From contig RPOR01000007.1 in the NCBI GenBank assembly GCA_003820645.1, positions 1 through 59,558 of the forward strand: a stretch of 59,558 nucleotides of DNA, in the 5' to 3' direction. The notes under the pieces are model-generated. The model did no database searches. It was not told the origin of the DNA and was given only the letters and a program-made list of their open reading frames with translations. Source of the stretch: Betaproteobacteria bacterium. GTDB taxonomy: Bacteria; Pseudomonadota; Gammaproteobacteria; Burkholderiales; SG8-41. Position numbers and translations under genes: made by a program. Shown here piece by piece: positions 3,295 to 58,236 of this stretch. The first letter of the stretch is position 1. Each line of letters begins with the position of its first letter.

Positions 3295-3585
3295 GGCAGA
3301 CGCATTATTTCATGCGGGCTGCGGCGAGGGTGATGTTGGTGCCGATTCGGCAAGGGCAGCACTGCGCAACGAACACGGAGTCCGGGCAAGCCGATGGCGT
3401 TCGTTCCCGAGCGTAACGCGACACGCGGCAAAAGGGCATGCGTGATGCGGTGCGCATTGTCATGAACAAGGCGGCCGGATTCACGGCCACGGCACCGGCC
3501 GTGCAGGCCGGGACGGCGTTGCGCCGACTGGCCAGTGGTATCATGGCAGACGATGGCTATGTTTGAGTAAACAGGAGAAAATTAA

Positions 3586-4566
3586 TTGAAATCAATAGGT
3601 TATAAAGTATCGCCGGTGCTGATCGGGACACTGGCCGCACTCGTGAGCTGGCCGGTTGGCGCACAGAACTACCCGGCCAAGCCGGTACGCATGATCATTC
3701 CGTTTTCAGCGGGCGGCGCTGCTGATGTGCCGGGCCGCATCATCATGCAGAAACTCGGCGAAGCGCTGCGTCAGCAAATCGTGGTCGAGAATCGTCCCGG
3801 TGCGGGCTCCACGATCGGCGCCGATGTGGCGGCCAAGTCCGCCCCCGATGGTTACACCATATTCATGATCAGCAATACGCATTTTGTCAGCGCGGCATTG
3901 CACAAGAAACTGGCCTATGACTCGCTGCACGACTTCACCCCGGTGACCCAAATCACCAGTGCGCCGAATGTGCTGGTGGTGCATCCGTCGCTGCCGGTGA
4001 AATCGGTGAAGGAGTTGATTGCGCTCGCGAAGGCGAGGCCCGGCCAGATCGATTACGCATCTTCGGGCAATGGCAGCACCCAGCATCTGACCGGTGCGTT
4101 GTTTGCCAGCATGGCTGGCATCAACATGACCCACATTCCCTATCGCGGCAGCGGCCCGGTGACTTCCGATCTGCTGGGCGGGCAGGTGATGGTGGCTTTT
4201 CCCGGCATTGCCGGCATGCTGCCGCATATCCGGGCGGGGAAACTGCGTGCGCTGGGCGTGACCGGAGTGAAGCGCTCTCCCGAACTGCCCGATGTACCTA
4301 CGGTTGCGGAGGCCGGAGTCAAGGGTTACGAAATGGTGGCCTGGTTCGGGGTGGCCGCGCCGAAGGGATTGTCACGAAATATTCAAATGAAACTCCACGG
4401 CGATCTGCTGCGCGTGTTGAAGACACCGGAAATGAGCCGCAGCCTGCAAAAAGTCGGGCAGGAGCCGGCGTGGCAGGACACGCCGGAGAAATTCTTCGAA
4501 TTCATGACGGTCGAAGCCGCCAAATGGGCCAAAGTGGTCAAAGCCAGCGGGGCGGTGATCGATTAG
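3586..4566 (+). CDS. Bug/TctC tripartite tricarboxylate transporter substrate-binding protein
   Basis: Signal peptide then YPAKPVRMIIPFSAGG, VENRPGAG, APDGYT, HIPYRG motifs; TTG start after CAGGAG. Confidence 0.9.
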   Translation: MKSIGYKVSPVLIGTLAALVSWPVGAQNYPAKPVRMIIPFSAGGAADVPGRIIMQKLGEALRQQIVVENRPGAGSTIGADVAAKSAPDGYTIFMISNTHFVSAALHKKLAYDSLHDFTPVTQITSAPNVLVVHPSLPVKSVKELIALAKARPGQIDYASSGNGSTQHLTGALFASMAGINMTHIPYRGSGPVTSDLLGGQVMVAFPGIAGMLPHIRAGKLRALGVTGVKRSPELPDVPTVAEAGVKGYEMVAWFGVAAPKGLSRNIQMKLHGDLLRVLKTPEMSRSLQKVGQEPAWQDTPEKFFEFMTVEAAKWAKVVKASGAVID

Positions 4567-17199: not shown

Positions 17200-20100
17200 T
17201 CAGTGGAAATTCCGCGCCGTTGTCGCCAGTTGTCCCAGCAACTTGCTGTGATCGGTCAGTCGGTGCGCGATCAAGTGCACCACATCGCCTTCCTTTTGTA
17301 CCACGCCCTCGACACCGAGCAGGTTTGACTGCAGCAGTTCCCGGCGTTGCTGCTCGATCAGCTGCTGCCGGACCACGACGTTGATATAGCCCGTTTCGTC
17401 TTCCAGCGTGACGAACATTACGCCATGGGCCGTGCCGGGACGCTGGCGACAGGTTACGAGACCTGCAGCGCGGGCGTGACGGCCATTGGCAAGGGTGCGC
17501 AGATCGGCGGCATTGATCAAGCGCATGCGCTGCAGACGCGGTCGCAGCAAGGCGAGGGGGTGGCGGCCGAGAGTCAGCCCCAGACTGGCGTAATCGTTGA
17601 CGATGTCACTGGCTTCAGTGGGTGGAAACAACCCGGGCTGCAATGCGTTTGCCGGCATGTGCTGCAGCAAGTCTTCGTCATAGCGGATACCAGCCGCCGC
17701 CCAGTGTGCCAGCCGGCGATGGCCTGCCAGCGTGGCCAAGGCGCCGGCATCGGCCAGCTTGCGCAGAGCCGGGGCACTGAGCAGCGCACGTTGTGCCAGA
17801 TCCGCGGTATTGTCGAACGGCCGGGTCAGGCGTGCCGCCACGATGCGGTTGGCCGCCTGCTCGGAAAATCCCTTGATCAGTGCCAGACCCAGTCGCACGG
17901 CAGGCTGCTCCAAACCGGTTTCGAGGGTGCACGGCCAGGCGCTGTGGTTGACATCGACTGGCCGCACTGCAACGCCATGGCGGCGTGCATCCTGCACCAG
18001 TTGCGACGGTGTATAGAAGCCCAGAGGTTGTGCGTTCAGCATGCCGGCAAGGAACGCCGCGGGCTCATGGTGTTTCAGCCAGGCTGACACGTAAGCGAGC
18101 AGTGCAAAGCTGATCGAATGCGACTCCGGGAAACCGTATTCACCGAAGCCACAGATCTGCTGGTAAATCTGCTCGGCGAATTGCTGCGTGTAACCGCGTT
18201 CCTGCATACCCGCGATCAGGCGCGGATAAAAATGCTCCAGTCCGCCCTTGCGGCGCCATGCTGCCATCGATCGGCGCAACTGGTCGGCTTCGCCGGGCGT
18301 AAATCCGGCGGCGACGACGGCGAGCTGCATCACCTGCTCCTGGAAAATCGGCACTCCCAGTGTGCGTTCCAGCACATGCCTTATGCCCGGCGAGGGATAA
18401 TTGACGGCTTCGAGGCCACGGCGGCGGCGCAGATAGGGATGTACCATGCCGCCTTGTATCGGTCCCGGGCGGACGATGGCGATTTGCACGACCAGATCAT
18501 AAAACTCCGCGGGCTGCAGCCGTGGCAGCATCGACATCTGGGCGCGGGACTCGATCTGGAAGACGCCGATGGTGTCGGCGCGCCGGATCATGTCGTAGAC
18601 GGCGGGGTCATCACCACGGTCCAGGATATCCCGCATTGTCAGGGGTGTGCGGCACGTGTCATGGAGCAGATTGAGCGTGCCGCGGATCGCCGAGAGCATG
18701 CCCAGTGCCAGTACATCAACCTTGAGCAATCCCAGCGCTTCCAGATCGTCCTTGTCCCACTGGATGATCGATCGCTCCGGCATCGCGGCGTTTTCAACCG
18801 GCACCAGCCGCGCCAACGGTCCGCTGGCGATGACAAAACCGCCGACATGCTGGGACAGATGGCGCGGAAAGCCGACGATTTCCGTGGCCAGGCGGATTAC
18901 GCGTTGCATCACCGGGCTGTCGGCGTCGACGCCCGCGTCGCGCAGGCGCTCGGGCATGGCCCGCTGTCCGTCCCACCACATCATCGAGCGCGCCACGCGA
19001 TCAGTGATGGATTGCTCCAGGCCCAGCGCCTTGCCGATATCACGCAGTGCGCTGCGCGGACGGTAGGTGATGACCGTAGCCGCGAGGGCGGCACGGTCAC
19101 GTCCGTACTTGCCATAAATGTACTGGATCACTTCTTCACGGCGCTGATGTTCGAAGTCGACATCGATGTCCGGCGGTTCGTCGCGCTCGCGGGAAATGAA
19201 GCGTTCGAACAGCAGGTTCATGCGCGCAGGATCAACCTCGGTGATGCCCAGGCAGTAACACACTGCGGAATTGGCGGCCGAGCCGCGTCCCTGGCACAGG
19301 ATATGGTTGGCACGGGCATAGGCCACGATATCCTGCACCGTCAGGAAAAAATGTTCATAGCCGAGCTCGGCGATCAGTGCGAGTTCATGTTCCACCTGGC
19401 AGCGCACCACATCCGGGATGCCGTCAGGATAGCGCCGGTGCAGGCCGTCAATGGTCAATCGCCGCAAGTGACTGGTGGAGGTTTCTCCTTCCGGTACCAG
19501 CTCGCCCGGATATTCGTAACGCAGGCTGTCGAGTGAAAAATTGCAGCGTTCCGCAATGCGCAGGGTTTCGGTCAGCAGTGGTGCGGGATAGATTTGCGCC
19601 AGCCGCAGGCGTGAGCGCAAATGCCGCTCGGCATTGGCGTACAGCGCGTGGCCTGCTGCATGCACCGGTGTGTGCAGGCGTATCGCCGTCAGCGCATCCT
19701 GCAGCGGCTTGCGCGACCTTACGTGCATATGCACGTCACCGGCCGCAACCAGCGGCAGACCACAGGCATGTCCCAGCGCCTGCAAGTCATGCAATCGCGC
19801 GTGATCGTTTGTCCCGCGCAGCAGTTCAACGGCGATCCAGGCGCAGCCGCTGAAACGCTGCGCGACAAACCGTGCTGTTTCGGCATCAGCCGGATCGCCG
19901 TGCAGCAACAGCGCCAGGCAATGGTCGAGGTTGCATTGCAGGTCGGCACGGGTCAGGCGGTATGCGCCCTTGGCGGAGCGTCGGCGGCCGCGGCTGATCA
20001 GCATCGAGATGTGGCCGTAACTTTCGCGGTTGGTGGCGAGCAGGACCAATCGCAGCCGTTCATCGATCAACACCTCGGTGCCGATGATCAGTTTGAGGCC

Positions 20101-50037: not shown

Positions 50038-50155
50038 CCCGGTTTTTGGCGTTTTGATGTAAAATTCCGGCCATCCGGGCAGAGCGGGATTCTCCACTTC
50101 CGCTTTGCCTTTGTTTTTTCATAAAAATCAACGTGTTCCGTAAGAGGAGTCTCTG

Positions 50156-51991
50156 ATGAACCAGCCAGCGACCAAGGCGCAAGTTGCGCCTGCCATGGAT
50201 AGTCCCTCATATGTCACGCATGCCAAGCTGAAAGCGTGGGTGGCCGAGGTGGCGCAAATGACCAAACCCGACCGCATCGTCTGGTGCGATGGTTCGCAGC
50301 AGGAATACGACCGCTTGTGCAACGAAATGGTCGCTTCCGGTACGCTGATCCGGCTCAATCAGGAAAAGCGCCCCGGCTGTTTCCTTGCCCGCTCGGACCC
50401 CGACGACGTTGCCCGCATGGAAGACCGCACCTTCGTCTGCAGCAAGAACAAGGAAGACGCCGGGCCCAACAACAACTGGGTCGCTCCCGAGGAAATGAAG
50501 GCGACCATGCGCAAGTTCTACGAGGGCTGCATGCGCGGGCGCACCATGTACGTGATCCCTTTCAGCATGGGGCCGCTGGGGTCGCCCATTGCACATATCG
50601 GTGTCGAACTGACCGACTCGCCCTACGTGGTGGTCAGCATGCGCATCATGACCCGCATCGGCCGCAAGGTGCTCGACGTGCTCAAGGACGGCACCTTTGT
50701 GCCATGCCTGCACTCGGTCGGCATGCCGCTCGGCCCCGGCCAGAAAGACATTCCGTGGCCGAGCAACAAGGAACACAAGTTCATCACCCATTTCCCCGAA
50801 GAAAGGCTGGTCTGGTCGTTCGGCAGCGGCTACGGCGGCAATGCGCTGCTTGGGAAGAAGTGCTTCGCGCTGCGCATCGCCTCGATCATGGCGAAAGAAC
50901 AGGGCTGGCTCGCTGAACACATGCTGATCCTCGGCATCCAGCCCCCGGTCGGCAAGAAACACTACATCGCGGCGGCCTTTCCCAGCGCCTGCGGCAAGAC
51001 CAATCTCGCGATGCTGATCCCGCCCAAGGCGCTGGAAGGCTGGAAAGTCACCACCATCGGCGAAGACATTGCCTGGATCAAGCCCGGCGCCGACGGCCGG
51101 CTGTATGCGATCAACCCGGAATCCGGTGCCTTTGGCGTCGCGCCCGGCACTTCCGAGGAAACCAATGCCAATTGCCTGGCGGCACTGAAAAGCAACACCA
51201 TTTTTACCAACGTCGCGATGACCGACGATGGCGACGTGTGGTGGGAGGGGCTCAGTAAGGAGCCGCCCCAGCACCTGATCGACTGGACCGGGCAGTCGTG
51301 GACGCCGGACAGCGGTCGCCTCGCGGCGCATCCGAATTCGCGTTTTACGGTCCACGCTTCGCAGATTCCGTCGATGGACCCGGACTGGGAGGACCCCGCC
51401 GGGGTGCCGATCAGCGCTTTCCTGTTTGGCGGCCGTCGGACGACTACCGTGCCGCTGGTCGCCGAAGCCAAGGACTGGCAGCACGGCGTATACCTGGCTG
51501 CGACCATGGCCTCGGAAACGACTGCAGCCATCGTCGGCAAAGTCGGCGTGGTGCGCCGCGATCCGTTCGCGATGCTGCCGTTCTGCGGCTACCACTTCGG
51601 GGATTACTTCAAGCACTGGCTGAATGTCGGCACCCGCATCAAGCAGGCGCCGAAAATTTTTGCCGTCAACTGGTTCCGTCGCGATACCAACGGCAAGTTC
51701 ATGTGGCCGGGTTTCGGTGACAACATGCGGGTGCTGAAATGGGTCGTCGAGCGTTGCGAAGGCAAGTCCGGTGCCACCGAAACCCCGATCGGCCATATGC
51801 CGCGTTACGAAGACATGGAATGGGCTGGCATGAACGGCTTTACCCGCGAAGCCTTCGACGAACTGACGCACGTCGACCACGATGCCTGGCGTGCCGAATA
51901 CAGGGATCATGAAGAACTGTTCGGCAAACTCAAGTCGCGCCTGCCCGTGGAAATGCATGCACAGCGGCAGGCACTGGAGAAAACGCTATAA
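50156..51991 (+). CDS. pckG: Phosphoenolpyruvate carboxykinase (GTP)
   Basis: [54 protein letters not shown]. Confidence 0.95.
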
Positions 51992-52020
51992 GCCGCCCGC
52001 TTGCAGATCCGGCTGCAACA

Positions 52021-52060
52021 ACGGCGACGGCGCTGATGCGCTGTCGCCGTTTTATTTTTT
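52021..52060 (+). terminator. Intrinsic terminator after pckG
   Basis: ACGGCGACGGCGC-TGAT-GCGCTGTCGCCGT then TTTATTTTTT. Confidence 0.85.
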
Positions 52061-52077
52061 ACTAAGGAGAAATGCCC

Positions 52078-52248
52078 ATGGCACAACCGAACTACGGGTT
52101 TGCAAAACGGCAACGGGAACTTGCCAAGAAGCAGAAGAAGGAAGAAAAGCGCCGGCGCAAGGAAGCCGAGAATGCGCCGCCAGGCGGAGATGGTGCGCCT
52201 GACCAGCCGGCTGCCGACCAGCAACAGAACGACGTGCCGCAACAATGA
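52078..52248 (+). CDS. Small Lys/Arg/Glu-rich protein (56 aa), absent from the supplied ORF track
   Basis: TAAGGAG RBS 8 nt before ATG; MAQPNYGFAKRQRELAKKQKKEEKRRRKEAENAPPGGDGAPDQPAADQQQNDVPQQ*. Confidence 0.75.
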   Translation: MAQPNYGFAKRQRELAKKQKKEEKRRRKEAENAPPGGDGAPDQPAADQQQNDVPQQ

Positions 52249-52372
52249 TGCAGGGTACGCCGCCGGGGATTGAGACACGGGGGCGCCGCTGGCGTCCTTT
52301 GTTTTTGGGACATCACCTTACCCCTGTGATGCTGCGCACTGCATTGGTCGATATCGAACCCGGGACCTACCC

Positions 52373-52714
52373 ATGCCTGCCTGGCTGATACCCGCGCTCA
52401 AGGCCGTTCTGCCGCATGTCGCAACCATTATTTCGACGGCGACGCCGGTGTTTACCAAAAAAAAGGATGATGCCGCTGCCAGTCAGAGTTTGTTGCTGCA
52501 GCAGCAGATCACGGAGCTGCAGGGGGCGGCATCCCAGAACGCGGCACATATCCGGAAACTGGCAGAGCAACTGCAGGAGACTGTCGCCGCGCTGGAACAG
52601 GCAGCGACTCTTGCCGACACCCGGCTGCGCCGCGCTTACCTGCTCTGTGTCGTTGCGACAGCCCTGTCCGCCGTCTCACTGGGGCTGGCGCTGTTCGTTA
52701 TTTTCGCGCCGTGA
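52373..52714 (+). CDS. Hypothetical membrane-anchored coiled-coil protein
   Basis: N-terminal amphipathic segment, Gln/Ala-rich coiled coil, C-terminal TM helix. Confidence 0.65.
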   Translation: MPAWLIPALKAVLPHVATIISTATPVFTKKKDDAAASQSLLLQQQITELQGAASQNAAHIRKLAEQLQETVAALEQAATLADTRLRRAYLLCVVATALSAVSLGLALFVIFAP

Positions 52715-52837
52715 GTCGGCCGGATCGACCACGCTGCTTGCCGGGAAAACGGCACGCTGTCTTGGCCGCTTGCGTTGCACCGTCCGGTCGGCAAGGCGGC
52801 AGGCGCCGTTAACGGAACGCGGCGGAGGTGACCGCGC

Positions 52838-54268
52838 TCAGCCCTTGATGCAGACCAGCGGCAGCAGGCGGACGACCTTGCCGGCGAGCCCGGCGTGGTC
52901 GGCGGCATCGACCACCGCGCTGACGTCCTTGTAGGCGAGCGGCGCTTCCTCCGCGACGCCGCGCGAGCTCGGGCTGCGGATCAGGATGCCGCGCGCCGCT
53001 AGGTCGTCGATCAGCGCGCGGCCGCGCCAGCGGCGCGTCGCTTCGTGGCGGCTCATCGCGCGTCCCGCGCCATGGCAGGCGGAGCCGAAAGCGCGTTCCT
53101 CTGTGCCCGCGGCACCGGCGAGCACATACGAAGCCGTGCCCATGCTGCCGCCGATCAGCACCGGCTGTCCGATCTTGGCGTACTCCGGCGGCAACTCGGC
53201 GTGGCCCGGCCCGAAGGCGCGCGTCGCGCCCTTGCGATGCACGAACAGCCGGCGCCTGCGGCCCTCGACCATGTGCGTCTCTTCCTTGCAGGTGTTGTGC
53301 GAGACGTCATAGAGCAGCGACAACTGCACGCCGGGAAACACTTCGGCAAAAGCCTGCCGCGCGAGGTGGGTGAGGATCTGCCGGTTGGCCAGTGCACAAT
53401 TGATGCCCGCGCGCATGGCACCGAGATAGCGCTGCCCAAGCGCCGACTGCAGCGGCGCGCAGGCGAGTTCGCGGTCGGGCAGGGTGATGCCCGCCGCCGG
53501 CGCCGCCACCACCATCTCGCGCAGGTAGTCGGTGCCGATCTGGTGACCCAGGCCGCGCGAGCCGCAATGGATGCTGACCACCACGTCGCCGGCGGCGAGG
53601 CCGTAGGCGCGGGCGGCGGGCTCGTCGAAGATTTCGCTGACTACCTGCACCTCGAGATAGTGGTTGCCCGAGCCCAGCGTGCCCATTTCGTCGCGCTGGC
53701 GCTGCTTCGCCTGCTCGGATACGGCCGCAGGGTCGGCACCGGCAGCGCAGCCGTGTTCCTCGATACGCGCGAGGTCGGCTTCGGTGCCGTAACCCTGCTG
53801 CACGGCCCAGCGCGCGCCGCCCTTCAGCATCGCCGCCATCCCGGCCGCGCTGAGACGGATTGCGCCGGTGCTGCCGAGGCCGGCGGGAATGCGCGCATAG
53901 AGCACGTCGGCCAGCCGCGCCTTGTGTGCTTCGAGGTCAGCGACGCCGAGGCCGGTATGCAGCGTGCGCACGCCGCAGGAGATGTCGAAGCCGACGCCGC
54001 CGGCCGACACCACGCCGCCATCTTCGGCTGCAAAGGCGGCGACGCCGCCGATCGGAAAGCCGTAACCCCAGTGCGCGTCGGGCATCGCATACGACGCGGC
54101 GACGATCCCCGGCAGGCTGGCGACGTTGGTCACCTGCTCGCGCACCTTGTCGTCCATGTCTGCGACCAGCTCGCGCGTGGCGAAGATCACGCCCGGCACG
54201 CGCATGCGACCCGTGGCGGGCAGCAGCCATTCGCAGGGGCCGCGCTGTTGCAGTCTGGAGAGATCCAT
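52838..54268 (-). CDS. rtcB: RtcB 3'-phosphate/5'-OH ligase, long archaeal/eukaryotic-like (archease-associated) type
   Basis: MPDAHWGYGFPIG, GFDISCG, GTLGSGNHYLE, IHCGSRGLG, DVSHN, HRKGATR, GGSMG, SACHGAGR, C-terminal IKG. Confidence 0.95.
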   Translation of the reverse strand: MDLSRLQQRGPCEWLLPATGRMRVPGVIFATRELVADMDDKVREQVTNVASLPGIVAASYAMPDAHWGYGFPIGGVAAFAAEDGGVVSAGGVGFDISCGVRTLHTGLGVADLEAHKARLADVLYARIPAGLGSTGAIRLSAAGMAAMLKGGARWAVQQGYGTEADLARIEEHGCAAGADPAAVSEQAKQRQRDEMGTLGSGNHYLEVQVVSEIFDEPAARAYGLAAGDVVVSIHCGSRGLGHQIGTDYLREMVVAAPAAGITLPDRELACAPLQSALGQRYLGAMRAGINCALANRQILTHLARQAFAEVFPGVQLSLLYDVSHNTCKEETHMVEGRRRRLFVHRKGATRAFGPGHAELPPEYAKIGQPVLIGGSMGTASYVLAGAAGTEERAFGSACHGAGRAMSRHEATRRWRGRALIDDLAARGILIRSPSSRGVAEEAPLAYKDVSAVVDAADHAGLAGKVVRLLPLVCIKG

Positions 54269-54313
54269 AATGGAAATTTTACGCAGCGATCGCAGGCCGG
54301 TTACTGATTCAGC

Positions 54314-54727
54314 TCAAACATCGACGACGCATTGTGCGATCCACAGGCCGTCCGGTCGCCGCTGCACCGCCAGTTCGCAGAATGAGGCGCCTTTGACTTC
54401 CGCCGCTGGCCGGTGGCGCACGACATCCACCGGCTCCCCCCAAGCCACGGCCTGCAGCCGGTGGCTTTCGATGCTTACGTCAAAGCGCGAAAACAGCATG
54501 TGGTGCGTTGCCATTTCATAGACCAGCGCGTTCAGCCAGTCCACCAGCAATATATCGTAGTCGGGCGCCGCGCACTCGATCCGGACCGCTTCGCGCGCCA
54601 TGACCTGCGCCGGATCGCAGATCGCGGCTGTCATTGCCGTCGCCGCACCGGCAAAGGCCTCGGCGAGCGTGGCACCGCTGCCGCGCACGCCGATATCGGC
54701 CTCGTGGGCGAAGGTTTCCCACTTCAT
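54314..54727 (-). CDS. Archease
   Basis: 137 aa; FAHEADIG (DHTAD-like), LLVDWLN.L.Y, EVKG, C-terminal VVDV; immediately upstream of rtcB. Confidence 0.92.
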   Translation of the reverse strand: MKWETFAHEADIGVRGSGATLAEAFAGAATAMTAAICDPAQVMAREAVRIECAAPDYDILLVDWLNALVYEMATHHMLFSRFDVSIESHRLQAVAWGEPVDVVRHRPAAEVKGASFCELAVQRRPDGLWIAQCVVDV

Positions 54728-56451
54728 CGCTTCGGCTTCGCCAGCAGGCGCCGCAACTCGGGCAGCGGCCGCGTGTTGAGCACGTCGGTAGCGGCGAGCC
54801 AGCCGCGCCGTGCCTGGCCGATGCCAAAGCGCAAGTTGGCATAGTCATCGCGGCTGTGGGCATCGGAGTTGATCGCGACCAGCACGCCTTCCTCTTTCGC
54901 CATCAGGCAGTGGGTGTCCAGCAGGTCCAGCCGCTCGGGGTGGGCGTTGAGTTCGAGGTAACAGCCGCGGCTCTTGGCGTGGCGGACGATGCGCAGCATG
55001 TCCGCGTCGTAGGGTTCGCGGCTCTCGATCAGGCGGCCCGTCGGGTGGGCCAGCAGGGTGAAGCAGGGGTGGTCCATCGCGCGCAGGATGCGCGCGGTCT
55101 GCTTGGCGCGGGGCAGGTCGAAGCGGCTGTGCACCGCACCGATGACCAGGTCGAGGCGGGCGAGCGCAGCGTCGGGCAGGTCGAGGCTGCCGTCTTCGAG
55201 GATGTCGACTTCGATGCCTTTCAGCACGACGAAGCCCGACAGCGTGGCATTGAGCACGTCGATGGCGTCGCACTGTTCGGCGAGCCGGCGGGGGTCGAGG
55301 CCATGGGTCATCGCCATGCGCCGCGAGTGCTCGGTGATCGCGATGTAGGACAGCCCCAGCGCCTGTGCGGCGAGCGCCATGTCCCGCAGGCTGTCGTGGC
55401 CGTCGGTGGCCCTGGTATGGACATGCAGGTCGCCGCGCAGGTCGGCGAGCTCGACCAGTTGCGGCAGGCGGTGCGCGCGCGCCGCTGCGATCTCGCCGCG
55501 GTCCTCGCGCAGTTCGGGGGCGATCCACGGCAGGCCGAGGGCACGGTAGACCGACGCTTCGCTGTCGCCGGCGATGCGCTGCCGACCGCGGAACACGCCG
55601 TATTCGTTGAGCTTGAGGCCGCGATCCTGGGCAAGGCGGCGGATCGCGATGTTGTGGGCCTTGGAGCCGGTGAAATAGCACAGCGCCGCGCCGTACGCGG
55701 CCGGCTCGACGACGCGCAGGTCGACCTGCAGGCCGCTCTTCAGCACCACGCTGCCACGCACCGGGCCGTGCGACAGCACCTCAGCGACCTCGTCGTAACC
55801 GACGAAGCGCGTCATGACATCGCTGTCGGCGTCGGCGACGACCAGGATGTCGAGGTCACCGACCGTCTCACGGCAGCGCCGGTAACTGCCGGCTATTTCG
55901 ACGCGTTCCACGCCGCGCGCACCCACGAGCCAGGCGACCAGCGAGTCGCCATACTGCGCGGCGGTGGCAAGCTTGACGCGGCGCGCCTTCGACAGGTGGG
56001 CTTCCACGGCCTGCAGGATGTTGGCCTCTGTCTTGGTGCCGAAGCCGGGCAGGGCGCGGATGCGTCCATCGCGCGCGGCGCGCGCCACCTGCTCCAGCGT
56101 CTGGACGTCGAGATCGTGCCACAGCATGCGCACGCGCTTGGGACCCAGCCCCGGTACGTGCAGCAGTTCGGTGATCGCCGGCGGCAGTGCGGCGTGCAGT
56201 TTCTCCAGCATGTTGCACTTGCCGGTGTCGACGATCTCGCGCATCTTGCCTGCCAGATCGTCGCCGATGCCCGGCAGCTCGGTCAGGTCCTCGCCGCGCT
56301 CGATCATCGCGCGCACCTCGCGCCGCAGTTCGCCGACGATGCGCGCGGCATTGCGGTAGGCACGGATGCGGAAGGGATTGGCCTGCTCGATTTCCAGCAG
56401 CTCGGCGATCTCGGTGAAGATCGCCGCAATGTCGGCGTTGTGGATGGGCAT
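54724..56451 (-). CDS. polX: Family X DNA polymerase with C-terminal PHP domain (PolX)
   Basis: NPFRIRAYR, HhH motifs, GSYRR..ETVGDLD and VDLR (three catalytic Asp), FTGSKAHN; PHP motifs DLHVHT, TEHS, GIEVD, AVHS, AHPTGR, NSDAH. Confidence 0.95.
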   Translation of the reverse strand: MPIHNADIAAIFTEIAELLEIEQANPFRIRAYRNAARIVGELRREVRAMIERGEDLTELPGIGDDLAGKMREIVDTGKCNMLEKLHAALPPAITELLHVPGLGPKRVRMLWHDLDVQTLEQVARAARDGRIRALPGFGTKTEANILQAVEAHLSKARRVKLATAAQYGDSLVAWLVGARGVERVEIAGSYRRCRETVGDLDILVVADADSDVMTRFVGYDEVAEVLSHGPVRGSVVLKSGLQVDLRVVEPAAYGAALCYFTGSKAHNIAIRRLAQDRGLKLNEYGVFRGRQRIAGDSEASVYRALGLPWIAPELREDRGEIAAARAHRLPQLVELADLRGDLHVHTRATDGHDSLRDMALAAQALGLSYIAITEHSRRMAMTHGLDPRRLAEQCDAIDVLNATLSGFVVLKGIEVDILEDGSLDLPDAALARLDLVIGAVHSRFDLPRAKQTARILRAMDHPCFTLLAHPTGRLIESREPYDADMLRIVRHAKSRGCYLELNAHPERLDLLDTHCLMAKEEGVLVAINSDAHSRDDYANLRFGIGQARRGWLAATDVLNTRPLPELRRLLAKPKR

Positions 56452-56728
56452 GTCAGCCCTGCCGCGGATCCGTCGGCATACGCATCTGGCAGCGCGCGGC
56501 AGCGTCGCCGGATGCTGCAGGTGCGGATCTGGATTCAGGTGTCATGATCGGTCGCCGGTATTCCGGGCAAAAAGGGTGGCCCTGCATTCTGGGGTGGGTC
56601 GCCTGATCTTGACGCTACGTCGCTTACCGGGGAACGTGAACCGCAAAGCAGCCAGTGGCGGTGGTCCTTTGCCAGCGCGCTTTGTTCGCGGGCGCGGCTG
56701 CCCAATGGTGGCGATGCTGGAGATATCC

Positions 56729-57055
56729 CTACCGATCAGCATGGGGCGTTTGCGCGCGCAGTTCGCGTAACTGCGTTTCCAGTTCCTGTATCCGCTCCAG
56801 CAGTGTAACCATCAGCGCCACTCCATACGGCTCGAGGTCGAAACTGATGCGGAGACGACAGGCCGTGCGGACGGTCAGCAGGCACTTTCCGCTGAACACC
56901 CACGGTGACGATTCCGGATCGATGGGCGTGACGGCGCCGTAATCGACGAGTTCGCGCAGTTCGGCTTCCGACAGGCCGGAGAGCTCCGCCAGTTCTGCCA
57001 ATGAGAACGCATGGTCCTCGGTCAGCCATTCCGGTTCAACATGTTCAGGGAGCAT
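56729..57055 (-). CDS. cbpM: Chaperone modulator CbpM (MerR-like HTH)
   Basis: [12 protein letters not shown]...L.ELVDYG, RL..SFDL...GVAL...LL.RI..LE; overlaps the cbpA stop. Confidence 0.82.
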
Positions 57056-57989
57056 GGTTCATCTCCTGTTGCAGGCGTGCGCGCGGATTGAAGGTCGATT
57101 CTTTCGCGAGTTGTTCAAACAACCCGCGCTCGACATCGGTGGCGGTGGCGGGCACCACAATCTGCGCAATGGCAAAAAGGTCGCCTTCCTTGCCATGGGG
57201 CCTGGGCAGGCCGCGCCCGGACAGCCGCAACTGCTGGCCGGCCTGGGTATGCGGCGGCACTTTCAGGCGCACCGTTCCACCCAGCGTGGGCACGTCGATG
57301 GTCGCGCCCAGCACCGCTTCCCACGGCGCCAGCGGCAGATCGAGATACAGGTCATGACCGCTCACCCGAAACACCGTATGTGGCTGCAGTTTGACCTGCA
57401 GGTACAGATCACCATCGCGCCCGCCGTTGAAGCCTTTGCCACCACGCCCGGCGAGGCGCAGGCGCTGCCCGTCGGTGGCGCCTTTGGGGATGCGCACCTT
57501 GAAACTGCGTGGCACTCGATGCAATTGCCCCTGTGCATCGCGTTCCGGCACGGTCAGATTCAGCTCGACTTCAGTGCCGCTATAGGCCTGCTCCAGCGAG
57601 ATTTGCGCTGTGACTTCGTAATCCTGTCCGGGCATGCGGATCGCTCCGCCGCCCGGTTGCCGACCTCCGGAGAAGCCTGCGAACAGATCCGCCAAGTCGG
57701 CATCGTCAAAGGCGAACTGAGAATCGCCATGCTGCGGACCCCAGCCCGGCGGCGGCTGGAAATCCTGCCCCGGCTGGTGACGACCGAGCTGGTCATAGGC
57801 GGCGCGCTTTTCCGGATTCTTCAGGGTCTCGTACGCCTCCGCAAGCGCCTTGAATTTTTCCTCGCCTTCCGGATCCTTGGACACGTCCGGATGGTATTTA
57901 TGAGCGAGTTTGCGGTAAGCCTTCTTGATATCCTCGGCGCTGGCACCGCGGTCCACACCGAGGATGTCGTAGTAGTCCTTGTATTTCAT
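57045..57989 (-). CDS. cbpA: CbpA-like class B J-domain protein (curved DNA-binding DnaJ homologue)
   Basis: MKYKDYY, HPD motif, no zinc finger, C-terminal domain PWEAVLG...FNPR. Confidence 0.88.
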
Positions 57990-58236
57990 CGACCTATTCC
58001 GGAAAGAGGGTAAGACAGGGTAAGACGAAAATTCGTTGAGAACCCGGATTCATGCAGTCACTTAACAGTCTACACGCATCGCACCGGGCGTTGATTCGCA
58101 ATCATGTGGCAATGGACGGCATTGTCCTGCGGCGCATGACGAAAGAATCTACGATTATCGACTATCATGCAGTCCTGACACCACTGCGCCATCCGGGCAC
58201 GTCTCATCGGCTTACGCTGGATGCTAAACCCCGTTC

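Follow-up and report, generated by a model that had tools for sequence, protein, structure and literature searches.

Gene layout of the polX-archease-rtcB locus

Analysis of a 59,558-nt stretch of DNA (positions 1 to 59,558 of contig RPOR01000007.1, assembly GCA_003820645.1, Betaproteobacteria bacterium; the whole stretch is called the window here) revealed three adjacent genes, polX, archease and rtcB, whose association recurs in other families and classes of bacteria. All three lie on the minus strand. The polX gene (54724–56451) encodes a 575-aa family X DNA polymerase with a C-terminal PHP domain, archease (54314–54727) a 137-aa activator of RtcB-type ligases, and rtcB (52838–54268) a 476-aa archaeal/eukaryal-type 3′-phosphate/5′-hydroxyl ligase, which is the single RtcB match in the assembly. 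The plus strand reads TCAT at 54724–54727, so that the coding strand carries ATGA, in which the TGA of polX overlaps the ATG of archease; this 4-nt overlap is a signal of translational coupling. Archease and rtcB are separated by a 45-nt spacer (54269–54313, minus strand), and a pattern scan found no terminator-like site in this spacer or elsewhere within the trio.

Protein identity and catalytic residues

The PolX protein matched NCBIfam NF006375 with 498.8 bits (cut-off 426) over residues 6–571. Its HHH_8, HHH_5, thumb and PHP domains scored above cut-off, and the palm model reached just 22.8 bits (cut-off 25). Residues 4–567 align with PolX of Thermus thermophilus (ttPolX, 3au2; E 6.8e-141), and the palm aspartates and PHP motifs line up with their ttPolX counterparts. 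Among 14 sequences from linked loci the Asp triad D199, D201 (GDLD) and D244 (VDLR), which we take to be the catalytic residues, is invariant, as are the PHP ligands H343, H345, D350, H375, E414, H441, H469, D530 and H532. The PHP domain of PolX is described as having nine metal ligands (PMC6616362). Gap-filling and 3′-end-processing activities can be predicted for this protein from characterised homologues.

RtcB matched PF01139 over its entire length (562 bits, profile positions 1–426 of 426) and aligned with RtcB of Pyrococcus horikoshii (1uc2/4dwq; E 2.5e-150) and with TTHA1785 of T. thermophilus (2epg; E 5.6e-149). An alignment of 14 RtcB sequences from linked loci shows no variation at D64, C98, H203, H234, H324 or H399 (the histidine of SACHGAGR), and the ligand and CHGAGR motifs align with those of P. 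horikoshii RtcB. As in solved homologues, these residues are presumably the metal ligands and the guanylylated histidine. Archease covered all of PF01951 (130.1 bits, positions 1–136 of 136), and its residues 2–137 aligned with P. horikoshii archease 4n2p (E 7.3e-24); it stayed below the cut-off of the NCBIfam equivalog NF001617 (106.5 vs 126).

The assembly (G000) is 91.7% complete, and the absences given here for the whole genome are based on it. Profile searches of the assembly returned no match to RtcA (PF01137), RtcR (PF06956), Ku (PF02735) or the ATP-dependent ligase domain (PF01068), and a search for TROVE/Ro60 was likewise negative. A previous sequence-only reading of this DNA had described three co-oriented genes with an ATGA overlap and 45-nt spacing, intact catalytic motifs, and no RtcA, RtcR, Ro60, Ku or LigD in the window. 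The layout is confirmed by the open reading frame (ORF) coordinates and the strand sequence and the motifs by the alignments of 14 PolX and 14 RtcB sequences, while the absences extend to the whole assembly, where the ATP-dependent ligase domain was searched.

Recurrence of the linkage within the class

We surveyed 400 scored genomes of the same class (one more was not scorable), counting PolX above a cut-off. Archease was found in 88 of the 400 and PolX in 60; 45 genomes, that of the window among them, had both. Among the 44 other genomes with both genes, archease and polX were less than 2 kb apart in 13, 5–22 kb apart in five, far apart on one contig in five, and on different contigs in 21. 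Adjacency of PolX thus exceeds chance, as it recurs in 13 of the 44. These 13 close cases represent 11 family codes; 11 of them have co-oriented archease-rtcB-polX, which is the commonest order elsewhere, one is divergent (G330) and one convergent (G352). The position of rtcB between archease and polX was verified by tblastn on the fetched regions, with rtcB-polX gaps of about 5–180 nt. The flanking genes vary among families and include MoeA, Asn synthase, a FadL-type porin, GGDEF proteins and a 5′-nucleotidase. In one more genome (G280) rtcB is truncated by a contig start and polX by a contig end, as would be expected if the assembly had split an adjacent pair.

Presence of the two genes was also correlated: archease occurred in 44 of the 59 other PolX-bearing genomes vs 43 of the 340 without PolX. 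No p-value is given for this co-occurrence, since related genomes are not independent observations. Among the 15 PolX-only genomes, one (G077) carries an unpublished flag.

Several candidates were rejected. A possible adjacency over a contig break in G371 was ruled out, as an FtsH-like gene follows rtcB there. A 1062-aa protein with RtcB and PolX parts (P0004) was considered as a fusion; it leaves the RtcB frame after SYVLAG, lacks CHGAGR and reaches PolX by way of an Arg/Pro-rich stretch. P0004 is a frameshift or read-through rather than a fusion and is evidence for one more adjacency only. The long open frames of G243 and G231 are not fusions either, with rtcB and polX sitting in different frames.

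Other forms of PolX were seen as well. Three single metagenomic sequences, each a possible read-through, join PolX to an adenosylcobalamin-dependent ribonucleotide reductase (P0005, 1184 aa), to NAD-dependent DNA ligase domains (P0006, 1283 aa) or to RecG helicase domains (P0008, 1308 aa). At one locus (L125, 3522–4568, plus strand) the ORF that immediately follows rtcB and occupies the position of polX holds the N-terminal HhH part of PolX only (HHH_8 and HHH_5), with no palm, thumb or PHP. The class genomes also contain many matches to PolX positions of about 5–150, in open frames of about 200–530 aa (most about 300 aa), some of them near archease (G194, G330).

Breadth beyond the class and phylogeny

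Contigs of named genomes from many phyla were scanned with the PolX alignment, and the best 80 of 583 relatives were considered. Among these 80, rtcB was within 4.5 kb at eight loci; ten of the 80 loci had less than 1.5 kb of upstream DNA, so that this side was not assessable. Six of the eight are labelled Gammaproteobacteria or Ectothiorhodospiraceae (one of them apparently identical with the G147 contig), one is a metagenome-assembled genome (MAG) of Methylovirgula with the divergent form, and one is an Acidobacteriota-labelled MAG with a 2-kb gap. In Alphaproteobacteria, the class of Methylovirgula, archease was present in 18 of 251 genomes, and polX was at most 2.5 kb from an archease-rtcB pair in three of these 18, Methylovirgula counted, in convergent or divergent arrangement. 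A metagenome contig of 241.8 kb (L126) carries polX-archease-rtcB at 75/74/78% identity to the genes of the window and with the same overlap (polX ends at 4001, archease starts at 4001); a divergent LonB/LonC-like protease adjoins this trio.

A PolX tree was built with FastTree from 94 sequences, a sample deliberately enriched in linked loci. Explaining the linked state on this tree takes 13 changes, and well-supported branches force at least 10 of these. Most members of one gammaproteobacterial clade (18 of 23) are linked. The PolX of the window is placed outside this clade, with unlinked Sulfuricella- and Nitrosomonas-labelled sequences. The RtcB tree places the L126 protein as sister to that of the window (Shimodaira–Hasegawa-like approximate likelihood ratio test, SH-aLRT, 95), followed by G027, a member of the same taxonomic order with the divergent form.

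The sequence-only reading had named a PolX adjacency confined to this lineage or its close relatives as an observation that would refute it. Instead, polX adjoins archease-rtcB in the 13 class genomes described above, and the adjacency spans at least 11 families, Alphaproteobacteria, one Acidobacteriota-labelled contig and several gene orders. Because it recurs across families, classes and gene orders, a real functional link between PolX and archease-RtcB is likely.

Acquisition of the block and its surroundings

The trio is followed downstream by convergent neighbours, a 113-aa ORF and then a GTP-dependent phosphoenolpyruvate carboxykinase (PEPCK) gene, and a cbpM-like gene lies upstream of it. 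When 30 congeners were searched at the DNA level with this 8.1-kb region, PEPCK turned up in 28, and the trio was matched by one polX alone, 67% identical and at another site in G004. In congener G001 the counterparts of window 50059–52246 and 56750–57990 (PEPCK and cbpM) lie 131 bp apart, so that window 52247–56749 is extra. This stretch of 4.5 kb, absent from the empty site of G001, holds the 113-aa gene and the trio. Archease was found in none of 24 congeners, and G+C is 0.66–0.71 over the trio vs 0.57–0.64 in the flanks (about 5–10 points higher). Because of the empty site, the missing archease and the raised G+C, the block looks, by these sequence features, like a newly and horizontally acquired, operon-like cassette. 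Near-identical sequence was present in metagenomes of 10 studies. An independent DNA contig of 2972 nt from a soil study covers the 5′ end of rtcB, archease, polX and cbpM with 30 differences; since it spans the same gene order, the arrangement is not an assembly artefact.

Directly upstream of polX and on the same strand is the gene for a MerR_2/CbpM-like modulator (56729–57055, minus), followed by that for a CbpA-like DnaJ protein (57045–57989, minus). The region between the cbpM-like gene and the polX start (56452–56728, minus strand) measures 277 nt, and the pattern scan detected no sigma-70-like site in it. The CbpA/CbpM-like pair may be a source of read-through transcription into the trio, and these chaperone genes are the sole hint of control at this locus.

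The 113-aa ORF (52373–52714, plus strand) is flanked by PEPCK and rtcB and falls within the stretch absent from the G001 empty site. It had no match in Pfam or NCBIfam. Its N-terminus is conserved, its middle part is coiled-coil-like and its C-terminus hydrophobic, and congeners encode proteins 65–70% identical at other loci. An Rfam scan of 51900–57100 gave a lone match, CcsR1, on the PEPCK terminator hairpin, which was rejected (20.2 bits vs a threshold of 65.3).

Neighboring genes, regulatory sites and expression

The trio stands beside stress- or dormancy-type genes in other genomes. Proteases were LonB/LonC-like at L006, L012 and L126 and FtsH-like at L010 and L025. Hsp20 was found at L012, L020 and L024, Host_attach/baeRF12 at L012, L021 and L022, PCMT at L021 and L024, a ribonucleotide reductase (Ribonuc_red_lgC) at L008 and L021, and Usp and a DinB-family protein at L008. 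NAPRTase occurred at L008, L011, L019 and L023, adjoined by an isochorismatase-family gene in L011 and L023. These neighbours point to shared stress or low-oxygen control rather than to a direct DNA-end mechanism. A phosphoribosyltransferase was also seen among such genes. At the gammaproteobacterial locus L022 an archaeal-type S-adenosylmethionine synthetase (PF01941, E 1.3e-160; 17823–19022, minus) lies near the trio. The genome of the window has Host_attach/baeRF12 and LonB-like genes on contig C61 (5333–5764 and 14055–14450, 8 kb apart), away from its trio.

Upstream of archease, perfect FNR-type boxes (TTGAT-N4-ATCAA) were present in three of 24 loci, L006, L083 and L097, all with divergent polX and archease. 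They lie 120 nt upstream in L006, 99 nt in L097, and 76 and 118 nt in L083 (perfect or near-perfect); no perfect box appeared in 200 shuffles per locus. A near-palindrome, TTGAC-N4-GTCAA, is found at 97 nt in L033 and, less well, in L014. Exact palindromes and 8-mers were searched upstream at the 24 loci, and the FNR-type box (3 loci) alone emerged, 8-mer counts being not above those of shuffles. Sigma-54 and CIRCE patterns gave no convincing matches. In the window, the 350 nt that precede polX contain no FNR-type box, the best match having 4 mismatches; matches with at most 1 mismatch occur at 3582, 24471, 48934 and 50118 of the window, none of them at the module. Two metatranscriptome runs cover small shares of the stretch, with contigs on rtcB and polX.

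A putative kit for broken nucleic-acid ends

We read the trio as a co-expressed kit that would mend the broken ends of nucleic acids when cells are under stress or not growing, an interpretation that we consider to have about an even chance of being right. The genes carry intact motifs, are tightly packed, and recur in several orders and contexts; we infer their co-transcription, their enzymatic roles (by analogy with characterised homologues) and the stress setting. Archease would load RtcB with GMP and so allow its repeated turnover, and RtcB would reseal breaks with a 3′-phosphate or 2′,3′-cyclic phosphate and a 5′-OH, certainly in RNA and possibly in DNA. The PHP domain of PolX would strip 3′-blocking groups from DNA and the polymerase core would fill the short gap, to be sealed by a housekeeping ligase. 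The tie among the genes would then be shared control and a shared type of damage, 3′-phosphate ends, and not necessarily a physical complex. The recurrence of the trio suggests joint induction of DNA and RNA break repair.

Several observations weigh against this interpretation. Among the best 80 of 583 relatives, none of the five nearest to the PolX of the window (69–76% identity) has rtcB within 4.5 kb, and just two of those five genomes contain archease, on other contigs. In the class, 26 of the 44 genomes with both genes keep polX and archease far apart or on separate contigs. Linked loci are over-sampled in the trees, and resolution is poor in that of RtcB, with 4 of 39 branches starred. 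Neither a promoter nor a regulator site was detected upstream of polX in the window. No contig from the RNA libraries bridges a gene junction, and those on rtcB and polX may be DNA carry-over. Removal of a 3′-phosphate and its direct ligation are, moreover, alternative fates of the same end, so that chemical cooperation is not self-evident.

A more direct role in DNA repair was one of the proposals of the sequence-only reading. RtcB with archease would seal or GMP-cap DNA 3′-phosphate ends (or 2′,3′-cyclic phosphates at embedded ribonucleotides), and PolX-PHP would trim, de-block or extend the same ends, making one repair route independent of end-joining ligases that use ATP or NAD. The tight operon and a linkage that recurs in several orders argue for it. 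Without a Ku or ATP-dependent ligase domain found in the assembly, PolX has no partner for non-homologous end joining (NHEJ) here, and the fusions of PolX to ribonucleotide reductase, NAD-ligase domains and RecG in single metagenomic proteins suggest that it tends to join DNA-metabolism partners. Yet this RtcB belongs with the P. horikoshii and human enzymes, for which RNAs are the known substrates; the lone apparent RtcB-PolX fusion (P0004) is a frameshift read-through without CHGAGR; and the neighbours elsewhere are chaperones, proteases and dormancy-type genes, not DNA repair genes. Capping of DNA 3′-phosphates by RtcB and one-step extension of the cap by Pol beta are documented (PMC4381079), but this sole basis is in-vitro work with the Escherichia coli and human enzymes, and we judge such a direct role unlikely. 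Its full form gets a distinctly small chance from us: archease-RtcB-PolX would be a dedicated pathway for DNA breaks, including embedded ribonucleotides, with 3′-phosphate or 2′,3′-cyclic phosphate and 5′-OH ends, in which RtcB seals or caps DNA in vivo and PolX-PHP trims, de-caps or extends the same ends. The neighbours could alternatively mark a maintenance island under an FNR/Crp-family regulator, where RtcB religates tRNA or rRNA at entry into and exit from dormancy and PolX merely shares the switch. The perfect TTGAT-N4-ATCAA boxes that precede archease by 76–120 nt at 3 of the 24 loci, the near-palindromes of L033 and, less well, L014, and the recurrent Hsp20, Usp, Host_attach/baeRF12, PCMT, Ribonuc_red_lgC, NAPRTase with isochorismatase, and Lon-like/FtsH-like proteases are in line with a low-oxygen or dormancy regulon. 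In its dormancy aspect it would resemble the mycobacterial DosR regulon. We nevertheless regard it as quite doubtful: a perfect box is missing in 21 of the 24 loci, the window has no FNR-type box at its module, and the genome keeps Host_attach and LonB-like genes on another contig.

The linkage could also be neutral, an ancestral gammaproteobacterial arrangement that was inherited and sometimes moved as a block, with PolX and RtcB functionally untied. The 18 of 23 linked rows in one gammaproteobacterial PolX clade are compatible with inheritance from a single ancestor, and both the 26 of 44 genomes that keep the genes apart and the unlinked nearest relatives of the window PolX (among the best 80 of 583) agree with it. 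But the linkage outlasts changes in order, orientation and flanking genes, it recurs in another PolX clade (window, L126, L006), in Alphaproteobacteria and on the Acidobacteriota-labelled contig, presence is strongly correlated (44/59 vs 43/340), and this genome gained the block whole; neutrality is very unlikely in our view. We find it extremely improbable that PolX itself acts on RNA, with its PHP domain healing RNA 3′ ends (2′,3′-cyclic phosphate or 3′-phosphate) and its polymerase adding nucleotides before RtcB ligation, like healing-and-sealing RNA repair. The tight co-orientation with an RNA ligase and its activator would suit this, as would the 3′-phosphatase and 3′-phosphodiesterase activities of PolX PHP domains (PMC6616362). 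Removal of the 3′-phosphate, however, would destroy the substrate of RtcB. The protein is a canonical PolX that aligns end to end with ttPolX and keeps the YFTGS segment, which in Pol beta presumably holds the sugar-selecting Tyr-Phe, and we know of no RNA activity of a bacterial PolX.

The linkage is a result of comparative genomics. RtcB is known as an RNA ligase, and joining or capping of DNA 3′-phosphates has so far been seen in the test tube only; with a link to PolX that is kept through rearrangements in many families, a role of RtcB in DNA repair becomes a testable question. The alternative meaning is that RNA and DNA break repair are simply switched on together when growth stops. Bacterial PolX, whose cellular role is poorly defined outside NHEJ-bearing species, gains a concrete candidate partner. 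If the dedicated DNA-break pathway were true, it would be the first natural evidence of RtcB as a DNA repair ligase and a third bacterial end-joining chemistry beside LigA and LigD.

Comparison with known systems

The closest known system is the archease-RtcB RNA-repair operon (Desai et al., 2014, PMC3973293; Desai et al., 2015, PMC4604427), in which, as here, archease is directly upstream of an archaeal/eukaryal-type RtcB. The RtcB of the window is very close to the P. horikoshii enzyme of that work, and its archease is close to 4n2p. Unlike that operon, the locus contains in addition a full-length PolX-PHP gene, which here precedes archease with an overlap of 4 nt and in other genomes mostly follows rtcB, and the host is a bacterium with a recently acquired block.

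With the enterobacterial Rtc system (rtcBA controlled by RtcR and sigma-54; in Salmonella with Rsr and Y RNA) the module shares an RtcB, presumably stress-induced, that reseals 3′-phosphate/5′-OH breaks. In contrast to that system, archease is present here, no RtcA, RtcR or TROVE/Ro60 was found in the assembly, and no sigma-54-like site with at most 2 mismatches was found in the 350 nt upstream of polX. The RtcB is also of archaeal and not of E. coli type, scoring 158 bits with NF007153, far under the cut-off of 407.

On paper the module resembles Ku-LigD NHEJ, which serves non-growing cells: a repair polymerase, a 3′-end-cleaning phosphoesterase and a ligase for dirty breaks are encoded together. 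The differences are that searches of the assembly found neither Ku nor an ATP-dependent ligase domain and that the proteins are separate instead of fused. The ligase chemistry would also be inverted, with the 3′-phosphate being activated by GMP and the 5′-OH as the acceptor.

Compared with other bacterial PolX-PHP enzymes (ttPolX 3au2; Bacillus subtilis PolX), the protein has the same domain order and an intact Asp triad and PHP ligands, and it is ‘canonical’ rather than ‘altered’ in the sense of Prostova et al. (2022, PMC9226535). The PolX neighbours named in the main text of that paper are LigD, ZapA, MutS2, a stand-alone PHP protein, an ATP-dependent ligase and a Mut7-C RNase; this text mentions neither RtcB nor archease, and its Table S3 may list them.

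The only biochemical bridge between RtcB and an X-family polymerase that we know of comes from Chauleau, Das and Shuman (2015, PMC4381079): E. coli RtcB caps DNA 3′-phosphate ends, and human Pol beta extends the DNA3′pp5′G cap by one templated step. That paper does not connect the two genes, and ‘operon’ stands there in the title of a reference only. Searches for RtcB with ‘family X’ or ‘X family’ returned this paper and unrelated ones only. No paper in the searchable literature names both RtcB and PolX, or archease, RtcB and PolX together; Burroughs and Aravind (2016), on RNA repair and outside this search, may describe the link. Compared with these systems, the locus is the known archease-RtcB operon extended by PolX.

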